DNA from: Paludibacter jiangxiensis | GTDB taxonomy: Bacteria; Bacteroidota; Bacteroidia; Bacteroidales; Paludibacteraceae | Direction: 5' to 3' | Assembly: GCA_945870155.1 (NCBI GenBank) | Contig: CAMBSB010000003.1 | Coordinates: 16,708-80,707, forward strand | DNA: 64,000 nt | Shown: in pieces, positions 7,073-11,432 of the stretch | Layout of the letters: every line of letters begins with the position of its first letter | How positions within the stretch are numbered: the first letter of the stretch is position 1 | Position numbers and translations under genes: made by a program | Notes under the pieces: generated by a model | What the model saw: only the letters and a program-made list of their open reading frames with translations | The model's database searches: none | Told to the model about the DNA's origin: nothing

Positions 7073-7828
7073 ATGAACAATAGTAAATTAATAGAATTAA
7101 ATTTTAAAACCTTGATTAATTATCCAGAAATCAATGGATATAGTAAACAAAAACCGTACAGATGTGATGGATTTTGTTGCGATTGCGAACAAAAAGGTTT
7201 GTTGACAACAGGTGAAAAGTTGGAACGAATGTCACACGGTGCAGACAGTAGCGATTTCAAAACCATTGTTGCCGAAAATTATGAAAACGACACGCCAATT
7301 ATGTTTATAATGCGTGATCCACCGCCTTCTACTCAACCTTTTTTTACTTCAATAGAACACAATGGAATAACAAAAGAAATTCCAACAAAGCATTATTATT
7401 GGATACAAGATTACATTAGTGAACCTGTAACACGTGAAAAAATAATGGATGGCAGCGTTTATGATTTATATTTCTGGTATCTACAAGAGCAGTTTTCGTT
7501 GAATAATATTTATATAACAAATTTAATCAAGTGTTATTCTAATTTATATCGTTCAAAAACACCAAATTACAAAATTCAAAGTAACTGTATTGAAATGTAT
7601 TTATTGAAAGAGATTGAATTATTTAAACCACTTATTATTTTTTGTTTGGATAGCAAAGTACATTATGTAATGAAACACAACCCAATAATGCAAACAAAAT
7701 TAAGAGAGTTTGGTATTTTAGTAGAAAAATTAAACCATCCTTCGCTTGTAGAATCATATCATAAAAATAAAGAAAACTACCTTAACAATAATAATGAAAT
7801 TATAGAAAAAACTTTGGCGAAAATTTAA
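7073..7828 (+). CDS. Uracil-DNA glycosylase superfamily protein with N-terminal Cys cluster
   Basis: PIMFIMRDP (motif A-like), IYITNLIKC, LLKEIELFKPLIIFCL and a C-terminal LNHPS motif; N-terminal CDGFCCDC. Confidence 0.6.
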   Translation: MNNSKLIELNFKTLINYPEINGYSKQKPYRCDGFCCDCEQKGLLTTGEKLERMSHGADSSDFKTIVAENYENDTPIMFIMRDPPPSTQPFFTSIEHNGITKEIPTKHYYWIQDYISEPVTREKIMDGSVYDLYFWYLQEQFSLNNIYITNLIKCYSNLYRSKTPNYKIQSNCIEMYLLKEIELFKPLIIFCLDSKVHYVMKHNPIMQTKLREFGILVEKLNHPSLVESYHKNKENYLNNNNEIIEKTLAKI

Positions 7829-7863: not shown

Positions 7864-8060
7864 GTGGATATATCTAATTTATATTTATGCACAAAATGTG
7901 AGTTGCGCGCTAGGTGGGATTTGCAATCCCACCTATTGAATTAAACGGATTTACAATCCGTTATAATAATTAATTTATATTAAGGATTAAAAATCCTCAA
8001 TTAAAAAAGTTGGGATTGCAATTTTTCGCAAGCTCAATACCGCTGGTTCCCAACTACAGC
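7864..8060 (+). repeat. REP-like composite element, best-preserved copy (5' parts also at 13206-13264 and 56425-56486)
   Basis: GGATATATCTAATTTATATTTATGCACAAAATGTGAGTTGCGCGCTAGGTG followed by GTGGGATTTGCAATCCCAC, CGGATTTACAATCCG, GGATTAAAAATCC and TTGGGATTGCAA..TCCCAA hairpins. Confidence 0.85.
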
Positions 8061-8143: not shown

Positions 8144-8434
8144 ATGGAAAAAGTTATTAAAAGCATTATATCATTTTTGATTGCAATAGCTGGTTTAATT
8201 GGTGGGGGAATTTGGGCTTACCAAACTAATTTTAATATTGAGCCAGTGATTCTTTTCATTGTTTCATTGTTAGAAATAATTGGATTTCTATTTCTGAAAA
8301 AAACAGATGAAAGTAATCCACCACAAAACAAAACTTCACAACAGAACAACAGAAACATTCAGAATATTAACAATAAAGGTACTGTCAAGAAACAGATAAA
8401 CATTCAAGACAACACAGGAAAAATTGAAATGTAA
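8144..8434 (+). CDS. Small 2-TM protein with N/Q-rich C-terminal pseudo-repeat; putative Lamassu-coupled membrane effector
   Basis: Two hydrophobic helices, a polar linker, then NIQNINNKGTVKKQINIQDNTGKIEM. Its stop overlaps the next start (TAATG at 8432-8436). Confidence 0.8.
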   Translation: MEKVIKSIISFLIAIAGLIGGGIWAYQTNFNIEPVILFIVSLLEIIGFLFLKKTDESNPPQNKTSQQNNRNIQNINNKGTVKKQINIQDNTGKIEM

Positions 8435-9021
8435 TGACTCAAGAAATCATAAACACTGTTCCCGTTGACACTCAATTTAACATAGGTGAAAATCATGGGA
8501 CTATTAATGCTATAAAAAAAACTAGGTTTTCAAAAAGATTTGAAAAGCTCAATACTGAAGTTGCAAGTGATGACAGGTATGAAGGCACGATGGAATCTCT
8601 AAAATACTATTTAACGAAACGAGATGGTATAGACATGCCAACGAAGTTAGAAGATGGAGGTTTTAAAGTGAGTGAGATAATTGAAGCTGCGAGAAGAAAA
8701 GAGAAGTTTGCAAAAAGACTTGAAATAAATCGATTTTTCGAATCGGCACAATGGATAGACAGTCAGTTGTTTGCAATAATCAAAATGAAATTCGAAGCTC
8801 ATGTAGATCCATTAATATGTAATGGCTCAACCAAAGAAGAAATTCTAAAGGTGGTAGTTCAGAATGTAATAGAACCGGTACTTGAAGTAATAAACATTGA
8901 AGGAGAAAATGATGAAGTACTGAATTATAACGCTGAAGATATTTTTGGAATGATTTATTACTTAACAGGACAATGTCACTTAAATTGGAAAGATTATGAT
9001 AGTATACAACCAAGCTTTTGA
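8434..9021 (+). CDS. lmuA: Lamassu LmuA-like / ABC-three-component C-terminal domain protein with no enzymatic effector domain
   Basis: Ends IFGMIYYLTGQCHLNW, typical of the ABC-3C CTD. Only ~25 aa precede the CTD. Lies directly upstream of the middle component and ABC ATPase. Confidence 0.7.
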   Translation: MTQEIINTVPVDTQFNIGENHGTINAIKKTRFSKRFEKLNTEVASDDRYEGTMESLKYYLTKRDGIDMPTKLEDGGFKVSEIIEAARRKEKFAKRLEINRFFESAQWIDSQLFAIIKMKFEAHVDPLICNGSTKEEILKVVVQNVIEPVLEVINIEGENDEVLNYNAEDIFGMIYYLTGQCHLNWKDYDSIQPSF

Positions 9022-9514
9022 TTTATATCATACAATATTTAGATTCCTTCAATTTTTAAATAGGTTCGAAAACGGTACTGAAATCGAAATTGAGAGACTC
9101 AGAATTTGGGATTTTTATTTATTATTTCCAAATAGAATCCATGAGATTAGATTAAAACAAAATGAATCAGATGTCAGAAAAATTAGAAATTCGTTTGTCA
9201 AAGACTCGAATAATCCATACGAGAAAATCACTGAAGATAGAAAAATATTTGAAAAAATTAAGCCCTATCAACTTGCTGCTTTAAATTGTATTGCCTCATA
9301 TGACATAATTAACAAAGAATATCTTAGTCATAATATTATATCTATATCTAACAAAGCAGTGCTAGAAGATTTTGTAGCGAAATTTGAAAAGCTATCAGCT
9401 AAAGAATTTAATGTAATATCACTTATGACAGGTCATTTTAAATTAATGTCATTATTTGGGGCAGATGGTTTAAAAAATAGAACTAACTTAATAGAAAGCA
9501 AATACGATGCATAA
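8996..9514 (+). CDS. lmuC: Lamassu LmuC-like / ABC-three-component middle component
   Basis: MIVYNQAFDLYHTIFRFL...LRIWDFYLLFP pattern; overlaps both neighbours. Confidence 0.7.
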   Translation: MIVYNQAFDLYHTIFRFLQFLNRFENGTEIEIERLRIWDFYLLFPNRIHEIRLKQNESDVRKIRNSFVKDSNNPYEKITEDRKIFEKIKPYQLAALNCIASYDIINKEYLSHNIISISNKAVLEDFVAKFEKLSAKEFNVISLMTGHFKLMSLFGADGLKNRTNLIESKYDA

Positions 9515-11432
9515 TAATTTATTTTTACATAGGTTGTTTATATTGACAGAACAAGGTAAAATCGCTTACGATGAAACATTTCATAAAGGAGTAAATATCA
9601 TTAGAGGTGATAATAGTAGTGGAAAGTCAACAATTACACACTTTATATTTTTTGTTCTTGGTGGATCATTCAATGACTTTGTACCTGAAGGTCGAAGATG
9701 TTCTGTTGTTTACGCTGAAGTTGAAATGAATAATGCAATTTTTACGATTAAACGTGAAATTGAAAAAGATGAAAAAGAAAATATTAGTACACAGTCGCCA
9801 ATATATTTTTTTTGGGGAAAATTAAATGAAAGTTTAAACCCTCCTGTTGATAAAGTTTGGCAGAAGTTTGGTTATAATACAACCAATAATATAAAAAGTT
9901 TCTCTAATGTAATATTTGATAATTTAGAGCTACCAATTGTGAAAGGTGATAGTAATATTACAATTCACCAAATACTACGACTACTTTATGTTGACCAAGA
10001 TTCGCCAACCAGTTCTTTATTTTATTATGAGCATTTTGACAGCCAATTAACCAGAGAAACTGTATCCGATTTATTACTCGGAGTTTATAACGAAGAACTT
10101 TATGAAAACAAAAAACGTCTAATTACTGCTGAAAAAGAATTAGAGAATATTAAAAGTGAAATTAAGACTACAAGTCAATTCTTTACTGACCCTTTATCAC
10201 TTAGTCCGAGACATTTAAAAGTTAGCATAGAAAACAAAGAATTTCAGATTTTAGAGATTCAAAATGAAATTGCTGCAATTAGAACTAAAGAAAAAGAAGT
10301 AAATTATGGTACGAATTCAAAACTAAGTTTTCAAGCATTAAATGAACAAGCAATTACCCAACGTTATATTGTTGTGGAACTTGAAAATCAAAAGTCTTAT
10401 TTGAACAATGAAATTGAAGATTCAATATTTTTTATTGATACTTTGAATAAGAAAATTAAAGCCTTAAAAAATTCTATTCAAACAAGAGAATTTTTAGGCA
10501 ATTTGCCATTAGAATATTGCCCTGAATGTTTGACTAAAATTAAATCAAATGATTATGACTCAAAATGCAAACTTTGTAAAGAGCCTATAGATGAGTCTTT
10601 TGGTGTTATTCAGGCTCGACGAATGGAATTAGAAATTGGATTTCAAATAAATGAATCTCAAAAACTACTTGAAATCAACAAAAGATCTTTACTTGAAATG
10701 GAAGCAAAATATAGTGCTGAATTAGCGAAATTGCACGATTTTCAAAACCAAGTCAACTCTGCATTACAAGATGTAAAATCTTTTAGTGAGGAAAGCATAG
10801 ACAGCCTAAATAACTCGTTAGGTTTTATTAAAGGTGAGATTCTTCAATATAGAACTATGCTTGAAAATGCCGAACTTTATGAAAGATTGCAAAATAAGAA
10901 AAATGAATTAGATAAAGAAGTGAATTATCTTAAAGGTTATAAATTTAATGCAGAGAAAAAACAAGCTAATCTTAAAGAGCAAATAAACAAAAGAGTTAGA
11001 GAAGAAGGTGTATATCTTCTAAATAACGATTTAGACAGACAAGATGAATTTAAAAATGCTAGTGATTTCTATATAGACTATTCAAACAATATTGCATTTT
11101 TGTCAAATAAATATTCAAAATATTCAGCAAGTTCAAATTTCTATTTGAAAGTTTCAGCTAGATTCGCAATTTTCCTTGCATCTCTTTCAATTGAAGGTAT
11201 GAGATACCCGAGATTTATATTTGCTGACAATATGGAAGATAAAGGTATTGAACAAAAAAGAGCTCAGAATCTTCAGAAGTTACTAATTGACAGAGTTAGC
11301 CAGTTTGATTCAAGGCAATATCAAATGATATATACTACCTCATATATAACAGAAGAACTCAATGAGAGTGAATATGTAGTTGGTGAATACTACACAAAGG
11401 AAAATCCAAGTTTGAAGAATATAGTTAAATGA
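9507..11432 (+). CDS. lmuB: Lamassu LmuB-like SMC/Rad50-type ABC ATPase
   Basis: Walker A GDNSSGKST, long coiled coils around a CPEC...CKLC zinc-hook-like centre, signature-like YSASS, Walker B-like IFADNMED. Confidence 0.8.
   Translation: MHNNLFLHRLFILTEQGKIAYDETFHKGVNIIRGDNSSGKSTITHFIFFVLGGSFNDFVPEGRRCSVVYAEVEMNNAIFTIKREIEKDEKENISTQSPIYFFWGKLNESLNPPVDKVWQKFGYNTTNNIKSFSNVIFDNLELPIVKGDSNITIHQILRLLYVDQDSPTSSLFYYEHFDSQLTRETVSDLLLGVYNEELYENKKRLITAEKELENIKSEIKTTSQFFTDPLSLSPRHLKVSIENKEFQILEIQNEIAAIRTKEKEVNYGTNSKLSFQALNEQAITQRYIVVELENQKSYLNNEIEDSIFFIDTLNKKIKALKNSIQTREFLGNLPLEYCPECLTKIKSNDYDSKCKLCKEPIDESFGVIQARRMELEIGFQINESQKLLEINKRSLLEMEAKYSAELAKLHDFQNQVNSALQDVKSFSEESIDSLNNSLGFIKGEILQYRTMLENAELYERLQNKKNELDKEVNYLKGYKFNAEKKQANLKEQINKRVREEGVYLLNNDLDRQDEFKNASDFYIDYSNNIAFLSNKYSKYSASSNFYLKVSARFAIFLASLSIEGMRYPRFIFADNMEDKGIEQKRAQNLQKLLIDRVSQFDSRQYQMIYTTSYITEELNESEYVVGEYYTKENPSLKNIVK

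Follow-up and report, generated by a model that had tools for sequence, protein, structure and literature searches.

A short Lamassu operon from Paludibacter in which a BASS2-like motif appears to couple LmuA to a two-helix membrane protein

The window analyzed here, a 64,000-nucleotide stretch of Paludibacter jiangxiensis DNA (GenBank assembly GCA_945870155.1, contig CAMBSB010000003.1, positions 16,708 to 80,707), contains an operon of four overlapping genes that encodes a small protein with two putative transmembrane helices (the 2-TM protein) followed by the Lamassu proteins LmuA, LmuC and LmuB. Sequence comparisons suggest that the enzyme usually found at the N-terminus of LmuA has been replaced by a BASS2-type amyloid-signaling motif of about 26 residues, and that killing probably resides in the coupled 96-amino-acid (aa) membrane protein. 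The small protein is very probably the tag-coupled partner of this Lamassu, and we consider it likely, with moderate confidence, that the coupling works by amyloid-like templating that leads to membrane damage. The direct observations are the gene set, the pairing of motifs, their co-variation across lineages, the identity of the motif with BASS sequences in relatives and the swapping of effectors.

All four open reading frames (ORFs) are co-oriented, with a TAATG junction (1-nt overlap) between the 2-TM gene and lmuA followed by overlaps of 26 and 8 nt, and lmuC, in the order lmuA-lmuC-lmuB, overlaps both of its neighbors (Table 1). The PADLOC LmuB match spans residues 2-585 of the ATPase, which also has an SMC_N match at its N-terminus, and the start of LmuC (MIVYNQAFDLYH) is kept in all loci compared. 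With LmuB, LmuC and a C-terminal domain (CTD)-bearing LmuA all present, the operon is by its gene families a short (type II, ABC-3C) Lamassu. An earlier sequence-only reading of this DNA had described four overlapping genes for a 2-TM protein, LmuA, LmuC and LmuB, and both the ORFs and their families were confirmed. The enzymatic effector domain expected at the N-terminus of a Lamassu LmuA is absent: only 66 residues precede the CTD9 domain (PF20285, E 8e-32, residues 67-185), no domain was found in them by Pfam, PADLOC or NCBIfam, and no second Pfam domain was found elsewhere in the protein. None of the four ORFs is another effector gene, and the PADLOC LmuA models fail to detect the LmuA of this operon. 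The sequence-only reading had treated LmuA as a CTD plus a peptide of about 25 aa; it was right that an effector domain is lacking but overlooked a conserved linker helix of about 40 aa between the 26-aa motif and CTD9, in which R31, R35, L39 and E42 are invariant (LmuA alignment A1).

This short architecture is widespread. A word-indexed search returned more than 270 short LmuA homologs of 190-196 aa, among which the N-termini are conserved, and an exhaustive search with only the CTD9 portion as the query gave 366 clusters at 50% identity, with nearly all of the 150 clusters listed being 180-210 aa long and having a domain start at residue 60-95. All-in-one CTD9 LmuAs were rare in the representative set and carried a trypsin-like, alpha/beta-hydrolase or HNH domain at the place of the motif, a division between all-in-one and motif-carrying proteins that parallels the all-in-one and motif-coupled architectures of NLRs. 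Searches for CTD9 in 400 genomes around the Methyloprofundus locus and in 400 around the Holdemania locus found no further members, and a protein search of phage records found no match.

Within the window, the first 26 residues of LmuA align with the last 26 of the 2-TM protein end to end and without gaps, with 10 of 26 identical, and of 20,000 shuffles that preserved the composition of the two peptides, 1 reached the register-fixed motif score. Comparison with hhalign paired LmuA residues 2-25 with residues 72-95 of the 2-TM tail (E 4e-6), and six-frame translation of the 64-kb window placed the motif pattern at these two positions only. The match that the sequence-only reading had drawn between the N-terminal peptide of LmuA and the C-terminus of the upstream protein extends further than first described. 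That reading had also counted two pseudo-repeats in the membrane protein against one in LmuA, which proved mistaken: the ratio is 1:1, and each supposed repeat is one strand-N-x-G half of a single unit. At the DNA level the segments coding for the two motifs are only 49% identical, which rules out a recent duplication. Taken alone, the motif pair of the window is suggestive but not compelling.

Stronger evidence comes from related operons. The loci compared were 24 from species genomes and 80 from metagenomes, and in each we read the ORF that ends where lmuA begins. In nearly every locus with a readable upstream ORF, a small gene abutted lmuA and carried a stretch matching the LmuA N-terminus, with overlaps of 0-4 nt or small gaps between the two genes in most loci, and the operons came from several phyla and from phage contigs. 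The pair set consisted of 78 non-identical pairs from the genome and metagenome scans, 5 further genomic loci and 8 viral-contig loci, or about 90 operons; related operons are not independent observations, and the weight of the comparison lies in the repeated concordance between classes. The 78 pairs fell into seven motif classes, and the partner belonged to the same class as its LmuA in all except 4-5 pairs, which were traced to regular-expression misses, one fragmentary or mis-picked upstream ORF, or a partner located two genes upstream. Co-conservation of the motif pair had been proposed beforehand as a check on the coupling, and the pair passed it.

The largest class, C1 (QNINNxGxVEKQINIQxNxGxIx[MLF]), accounts for 57 pairs and includes the window. 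Class C2 (KQxNINAGGDVAGRDI) has single-TM partners of 51-91 aa. In classes C3 (GNPGTGNxF...NYNPNAT), C4 (GGNNQILPNATEA) and C5 (NVNPNAT) the motif stands at the N-terminus of the partner, in proteins of about 172 aa that are soluble, about 145 aa, and 180-234 aa, respectively. C6 (KQTAIG) is found in Maridesulfovibrio and C7 (YDNxTHNGDNNF) in Methyloprofundus. Concordance extended to additional loci from Desulfovibrio, Phreatobacter, a soil contig, a metagenome-assembled genome, a second Bacteroidota genome and the 8 viral contigs, where partner and LmuA also co-vary in fine detail (GGDVVGRDK/GGDVVGRDK, AGGHIAAGN/AGGHIAGGS, GGDQAGGDIT/GDQAGGNIT and NGDYTGRDK/NGDYVGRDK). Among the 14 non-C1 pairs, the cognate partner ranked first in 8, and the observed sum of cognate scores was reached by none of 20,000 permutations.

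Several of these loci are unusual in other ways. In relatives from Prevotella, rumen and gut (L020-L022 and L094-L107; for example L022:2314-2826), the partner is a soluble, non-membrane protein of 145-234 aa. These soluble C3-C5 partners carry a motif of 20-40 aa at their N-terminus, a head-to-head form of coupling, and the representatives scanned matched no Pfam or NCBIfam family. On one viral contig (L120, upstream ORF ending near 1011), a single-TM partner carries the motif twice in tandem, as LKGNISGGSIAGGSIIKN and LKNNTAAGDIAGGDIKK, against one copy in LmuA; this HET-s-like 2:1 arrangement was seen only in this distant relative. On Agrobacterium plasmid pA (L117, NZ_CP047389.1 279753-283905), a CTD9 gene annotated as "ABC-three component system protein" is followed by Tn7-like tnsB/tniB/tniQ in place of lmuC and lmuB, and this system appears to have been disrupted by a transposon; the second region inspected among the plasmid matches carries no annotated features.

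The C1 alignments show which positions of the motif are retained. Across 57 heads (LmuA N-termini) and 57 tails (partner C-termini), the conserved columns are Q2, [IV]4, N6, G8, [IV]10, Q13, [ILV]14, N15, [IVA]16, N19, G21, [IV]23 and a hydrophobic residue at 25, and prolines are confined to the positions immediately following the two glycines. This pattern of conserved columns and proline placement points to three short strands, connected by two arcs of the form N-x-G. The tails consist of 24% N, 16% I, 15% Q and 8% G with almost no P or L, and both this composition and the predicted arcs fit amyloid signaling motifs.

The partners of C1 LmuAs come in two forms, the 2-TM hairpin of about 96 aa found in the window and a protein of about 118 aa that starts with MEPITLITTAL.... 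The second form, which we call Bell-like, is present in 46 of 76 related operons placed on the LmuA tree, and the window together with L029 forms a 2-TM pair nested among MEPIT-type operons on that tree. The AlphaFold2 model of a MEPIT-type partner has five helices and a disordered tail. Using hhalign, LmuA family residues 2-26 matched the Bell-like tails over their final 25 columns (E 1e-7), and the 2-TM family matched the Bell-like family in the last 37 columns only (E 3.7e-14). On a tree built from LmuA bodies, the type of effector changes at least 14 times. A recent case is seen when L001:2711-3588 is compared to window positions 8144-9021: the LmuA proteins are 97% identical and the 2-TM proteins about 53%, with the break near the motif, a disparity that points to a recent exchange of the effector gene. 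Exchange of the effector module with retention of the tail is as expected for an adaptor tag.

The tails of the Bell-like partners also occur in published data. Bell-side BASS2 sequences were taken from the supplementary datasets of the probabilistic context-free grammar paper (PMC8086366). The entry A0A180F316_9BACT (HNQQNINNNGNIEKQVNIQNVTGNITL) is identical to the L015 partner at 27 of 27 positions, HYEQHIENQEAVEKQINIQHNTGDIRM is identical to the L056 partner at 27 of 27, and A0A2G5KJK6_9FLAO is identical to the L009, L035 and L039 partners at 26 of 27. The tail of the window 2-TM protein shares 15-18 of 27 residues with the same entries, by identity counts rather than by a BASS2 profile score. 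Judged by these tails, MEPIT-type partners are already collected in the published set as Bell proteins with a BASS2 tail, and assignment of the relatives to the Bell family is supported by their MEPIT start, size, helical model and tail identity with the Bell-side set. A Lamassu LmuA neighbor went undescribed in the BASS study because that study looked only for neighbors of the NB-ARC and NACHT kind. In more distant short CTD9 proteins the commonest motif, ...GDQAGRDI..., recalls the BASS1 motif ...YQAGRDQ..., a resemblance rather than a scored match. The BASS analogy drawn in the sequence-only reading was strengthened by the frequency of MEPIT-type partners and the identity of their tails to BASS2 Bell-side entries.

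The window's own partner matched no family in Pfam, PADLOC or NCBIfam. A hydrophobicity scan of the 96-aa protein found two segments, and AlphaFold2, run on the monomer with a 14-sequence alignment, predicted a helical hairpin (residues 2-27 and 32-57, predicted local distance difference test (pLDDT) score >90) with a low-confidence tail (59-96). In the family alignment A4, G17, G20, G21, W24, E33, P34 and the tail columns are invariant, and the linker (53-70) is variable. By the positive-inside rule, the KK that follows helix 2, together with the short polar loop, suggests that both termini face the cytoplasm (N-in/C-in), which would place the tail there. The second helix starts with IEPVIL (aa 32-37, 8237-8254), or MEPIIL in relatives, which recalls the MEPI(S/T) start of Bell and Babybell proteins, and this E-P could be a remnant of the Bell N-terminal helix or a convergence. 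Homology between the 2-TM and Bell-like proteins outside the tail was not detected by hhalign, and the common E-P is at most suggestive.

Published Lamassu structures provide a route by which such a motif pair could act. In these structures a monomer of LmuA is sequestered on LmuB/C, released when DNA ends are sensed, and activated by CTD-mediated oligomerization; one structural preprint proposes that LmuA release and oligomerization may be general for all LmuA types, and for lipase-bearing CTD9 LmuAs assembly into higher-order rings is predicted. Release and CTD oligomerization in other Lamassu systems supply the clustering step that the sequence-only reading had deduced, and by analogy CTD9 would serve here as the docking and oligomerization module. 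At rest, LmuA would be held as a monomer on LmuB/LmuC, and the 2-TM hairpin would sit in the inner membrane with a disordered cytoplasmic tail. Upon detection of phage or plasmid DNA by LmuB/C, LmuA would be released and oligomerize through CTD9, and its clustered N-terminal motifs would take on a cross-beta (beta-arch) fold. This nucleus would template the tails of the membrane proteins and stack many hairpins, and the resulting assembly would breach or depolarize the membrane, leading to abortive infection. We infer each of these features, from topology and oligomerization-driven nucleation to amyloid structure, membrane damage and defense.

The closest precedent is Bab/Agp from E. coli ECOR25, which protects against T5 through the amyloid conversion of a common motif, BASS11, and loses defense upon beta-breaker mutation (Ibarlosa et al., 10.1101/2024.11.07.622273). 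Bab is a 109-aa protein with a 'MEPIS'-type N-terminal helix, and the motif lies at residues 86-108 of Bab and 2-25 of Agp (10.1101/2024.11.07.622273). Both systems have adjacent collinear genes, a known or, here, presumed membrane-targeting executioner of about 100 aa with a motif of about 23 aa at its extreme C-terminus, and a sensor whose motif occupies residues 2-25. They differ in that the sensor side here is a three-protein Lamassu module (LmuA-CTD9, LmuC and LmuB), the presumed executioner is a 2-TM hairpin instead of a soluble Babybell helical domain, and the motif is BASS2-like instead of BASS11; cell death upon phage infection is the known output of Bab/Agp, whereas the operon described here is known from its sequence. 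Bab/Agp establishes that a common motif of 20-25 aa can transmit an abortive infection signal by amyloid templating. Oligomerization of the receptor as the trigger of amyloid nucleation is accepted for NWD2/HET-S and has been proposed for Agp (10.1101/2024.11.07.622273).

Other known systems share part of this organization. BASS motifs are about 25 residues long and rich in N, Q, G, V and I, and BASS1 and BASS3 form fibrils and prions (Dyrka et al. 2020, 10.1101/2020.01.06.895854). As in the Bell/NLR pairs of BASS1-10, a motif of about 20-25 aa is common to the effector C-terminus and the receptor N-terminus, encoded by adjacent, collinear and overlapping genes. The receptors considered for those pairs were exclusively NB-ARC or NACHT proteins, whereas the receptor here is the LmuA of an SMC-type system and not an NLR/TGP receptor, and the window effector has no Bell domain. 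BASS pairs were also tied to multicellular Actinobacteria and Cyanobacteria, whereas the hosts here are mostly Bacteroidota, plus Desulfobacterota, Pseudomonadota, Bacillota and phage contigs. In the fungal HET-S/NWD2 system, based on the HET-s-related amyloid motif (HRAM), the N-terminal motif of an oligomerizing receptor likewise serves as template for the C-terminal motif of a membrane-targeting protein from the neighboring gene. HET-S has two pseudo-repeats to one in NWD2, whereas each protein in the window has one full unit, and the fungal effector domains are unrelated to those of these bacterial genes. Canonical short Lamassu systems, such as the DdmABC/LmuACB system of V. cholerae with Cap4, share the gene order, the CTD-bearing LmuA, the middle-component LmuC and the zinc-hook Rad50-like LmuB, and CTD9 LmuAs with a lipase or protease are enzyme-bearing members of the same CTD9 family. 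The operon here differs from them in that LmuA lacks an enzyme, and the presumed effector is encoded by an additional gene upstream and linked to LmuA by a common peptide tag. Lamassu reviews and the 2025 structural and evolutionary papers describe enzymatic LmuA effectors only, and a link between Lamassu or ABC-3C and amyloid signaling was not found in the full-text literature, with the founding ABC-3C paper (Krishnan et al. 2020, NAR) outside that coverage. Within the literature covered, what is new is the apparent joining of a known Lamassu to known BASS-type signaling, together with a presumed non-Bell 2-TM executioner.

A number of observations weigh against templating by an amyloid motif in this operon. 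The 2-TM protein is not a Bell domain, the effector module characteristic of BASS systems, and its hydrophobic hairpin is, as modeled, probably in the membrane all the time, unlike Bell and HeLo domains, which stay soluble until triggered. AlphaFold2 shows nothing beyond a disordered tail in the monomer. Even for the relatives, membership in the Bell family drew no structural support, since no Foldseek match of the AlphaFold2 model in the PDB fell below E 2.3, a sequence-profile search of the PDB was empty, and PADLOC gave no consistent match. The free local alignment of the window pair is modest (score 37, shuffle p about 0.01-0.025), and the tails contain about 8% lysine (E-K-Q, K-K-Q), whereas BASS motifs are described as lysine-poor. 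Inside C1, an LmuA head often scores higher against the tail of another operon than against its cognate one, and cognate ranks scatter widely; co-variation is clear between classes and weak inside C1 because C1 tails are far more conserved than heads.

Some of these points would be explained if the motif were a non-amyloid docking tag, with tail and head pairing stoichiometrically (for example by beta-strand addition) and no self-propagating templating. The 2-TM protein could then be a fourth component, always present, that holds Lamassu at the membrane, or it could be opened by proximity when LmuA oligomerizes. Pairing and co-variation demand only a specific head-tail interaction, and the 1:1 ratio of head to tail in the window, the lysines in the tails and a hairpin that is probably always in the membrane suit simple docking. 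This is the main rival, although we regard it as unlikely, given that the motif family appears to be the published BASS2 type carried by Bell-domain proteins, that its composition and N-x-G arcs are as in amyloid signaling motifs, and that the viral-contig relative L120 combines two tandem repeats in the effector with one in LmuA as HET-s does. The closest characterized case, Bab/Agp, works by amyloid conversion.

Two further explanations place the killing elsewhere or deny the coupling altogether. The small membrane protein could be a regulator or an antitoxin-like brake whose tail occupies the LmuA head, with the output residing in LmuA/CTD9 itself or in a gene elsewhere, and the conserved basic linker retained in LmuA is compatible with such a role. 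We consider a brake improbable: the partner in relatives is Bell-type, which in Bab/Agp is the cell-death executioner, relatives exchange their partner modules, among membrane and other small domains, in the manner of effectors, all-in-one CTD9 proteins hold enzymes exactly at the position of the motif, and the operon has no other effector gene. Finally, the resemblance could be a by-product of low-complexity N/Q-rich sequence, a recent tandem duplication, or a single gene split by a frameshift; both segments are indeed N/Q/I-rich, and the free local alignment taken by itself would be reached by chance now and then. This explanation is very improbable and already largely refuted by the comparative sequences. 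Low complexity does not account for the rarity of the register-fixed score among shuffles, or for motif columns that are invariant beside a variable linker. A frameshifted single gene was rejected on the grounds that all related loci likewise have two ORFs whose stop and start overlap, and about 90 operons share this two-gene layout, each with its own matching motif. A recent tandem duplication was rejected on the 49% DNA identity and on three motif classes in which the motif is N-terminal in both proteins, with the copies 150-200 codons apart in some operons.

The operon is flanked by other genes that are probably defense-related members of the same island, a uracil-DNA glycosylase (UDG)-superfamily protein upstream and an OLD/HEC-04-like ABC ATPase downstream (Table 1). 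The 315-nt intergenic region upstream of the operon contains three or four palindromes of the form GGATT(T/A)nnAATCC within 7911-8021 (7917-7929, 7947-7959, 7984-7996 and a partial copy at 8011-8021), which may be repetitive extragenic palindromic (REP)-like elements, terminators of the upstream gene, or an operator.

Table 1. Features of the operon and its flanking genes, in window coordinates.
Feature	Residues	Position (nt)	Strand	Evidence or remark
UDG-superfamily protein		7073-7828		Upstream of operon
2-TM protein gene	96 aa	8144..8434	+	ORF list; stop shares 1 base with lmuA start (TAATG)
TM helix 1 (putative)	2-27	8147..8224	+	AlphaFold2 pLDDT 85-93; hydrophobicity scan; GxxGG-W motif
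TM helix 2 (putative)	32-57	8237..8314	+	AlphaFold2 and family alignment; opens with invariant E33-P34
C-terminal BASS2-like motif, NIQNINNKGTVKKQINIQDNTGKIEM	71-96	8354..8431	+	Match to BASS2 Bell-side entries
lmuA	195 aa	8434..9021	+	CTD9 is sole Pfam domain; adaptor/receptor side, no enzymatic effector domain
LmuA N-terminal motif, MTQEIINTVPVDTQFNIGENHGTINA	1-26	8434..8511	+	Head/tail alignments
LmuA basic linker, KKTRFSKRFEKLN.EV...	27-66	8512..8631	+	Conserved; between motif and CTD9
CTD9 domain	67-185	8632..8988	+	PF20285 match
lmuC	172 aa	8996..9514	+	Middle component MC5, PF20291, E 8e-44
lmuB	641 aa	9507..11432	+	SMC/Rad50-like ABC ATPase, PADLOC LmuB E 1.9e-37
LmuB Walker A	34-41	9606-9629	+	Motif search
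LmuB CxxC pair (zinc-hook-like), CPEC	338-341	10518-10529	+
LmuB CxxC pair (zinc-hook-like), CKLC	354-357	10566-10577	+
OLD/HEC-04-like ABC ATPase	500 aa	11682-13184		PADLOC HEC-04 E 2e-39; downstream of operon

The same logic may extend beyond the window. On balance, and with somewhat less confidence than for the operon itself, we favor the view that the whole short-CTD9 Lamassu branch, whose 366 clusters span several phyla and phage contigs, signals by prion-like amyloid templating using at least seven interchangeable motif codes, BASS1-like and BASS2-like ones among them. The executioners of this branch would then include Bell domains, single-TM and 2-TM peptides, and soluble domains.

If amyloid templating is the mode of coupling, it would account for a large Lamassu branch that has no recognizable effector and whose LmuA is missed by PADLOC here, and Lamassu would gain a membrane-targeting output beside its nucleases, proteases and lipases. 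An SMC/Rad50-type DNA sensor would join the short list of receptors known or proposed to act by amyloid templating, which consists of fungal and bacterial NLRs and Agp, and the Bacteroidota Bell/BASS2 proteins in published sets, which have no described receptor, would gain their true partners. With four genes and a 96-aa effector the system is small, its motif pairs would provide natural orthogonal 'codes' for studying the specificity of cross-seeding, and the known oligomerization of LmuA upon activation makes the nucleation step directly testable. Such a mechanism would also weaken the proposed link between bacterial amyloid signaling and multicellularity, and would make amyloid signaling a general device for coupling effectors in unicellular bacteria rather than a speciality of the NLRs of filamentous species.

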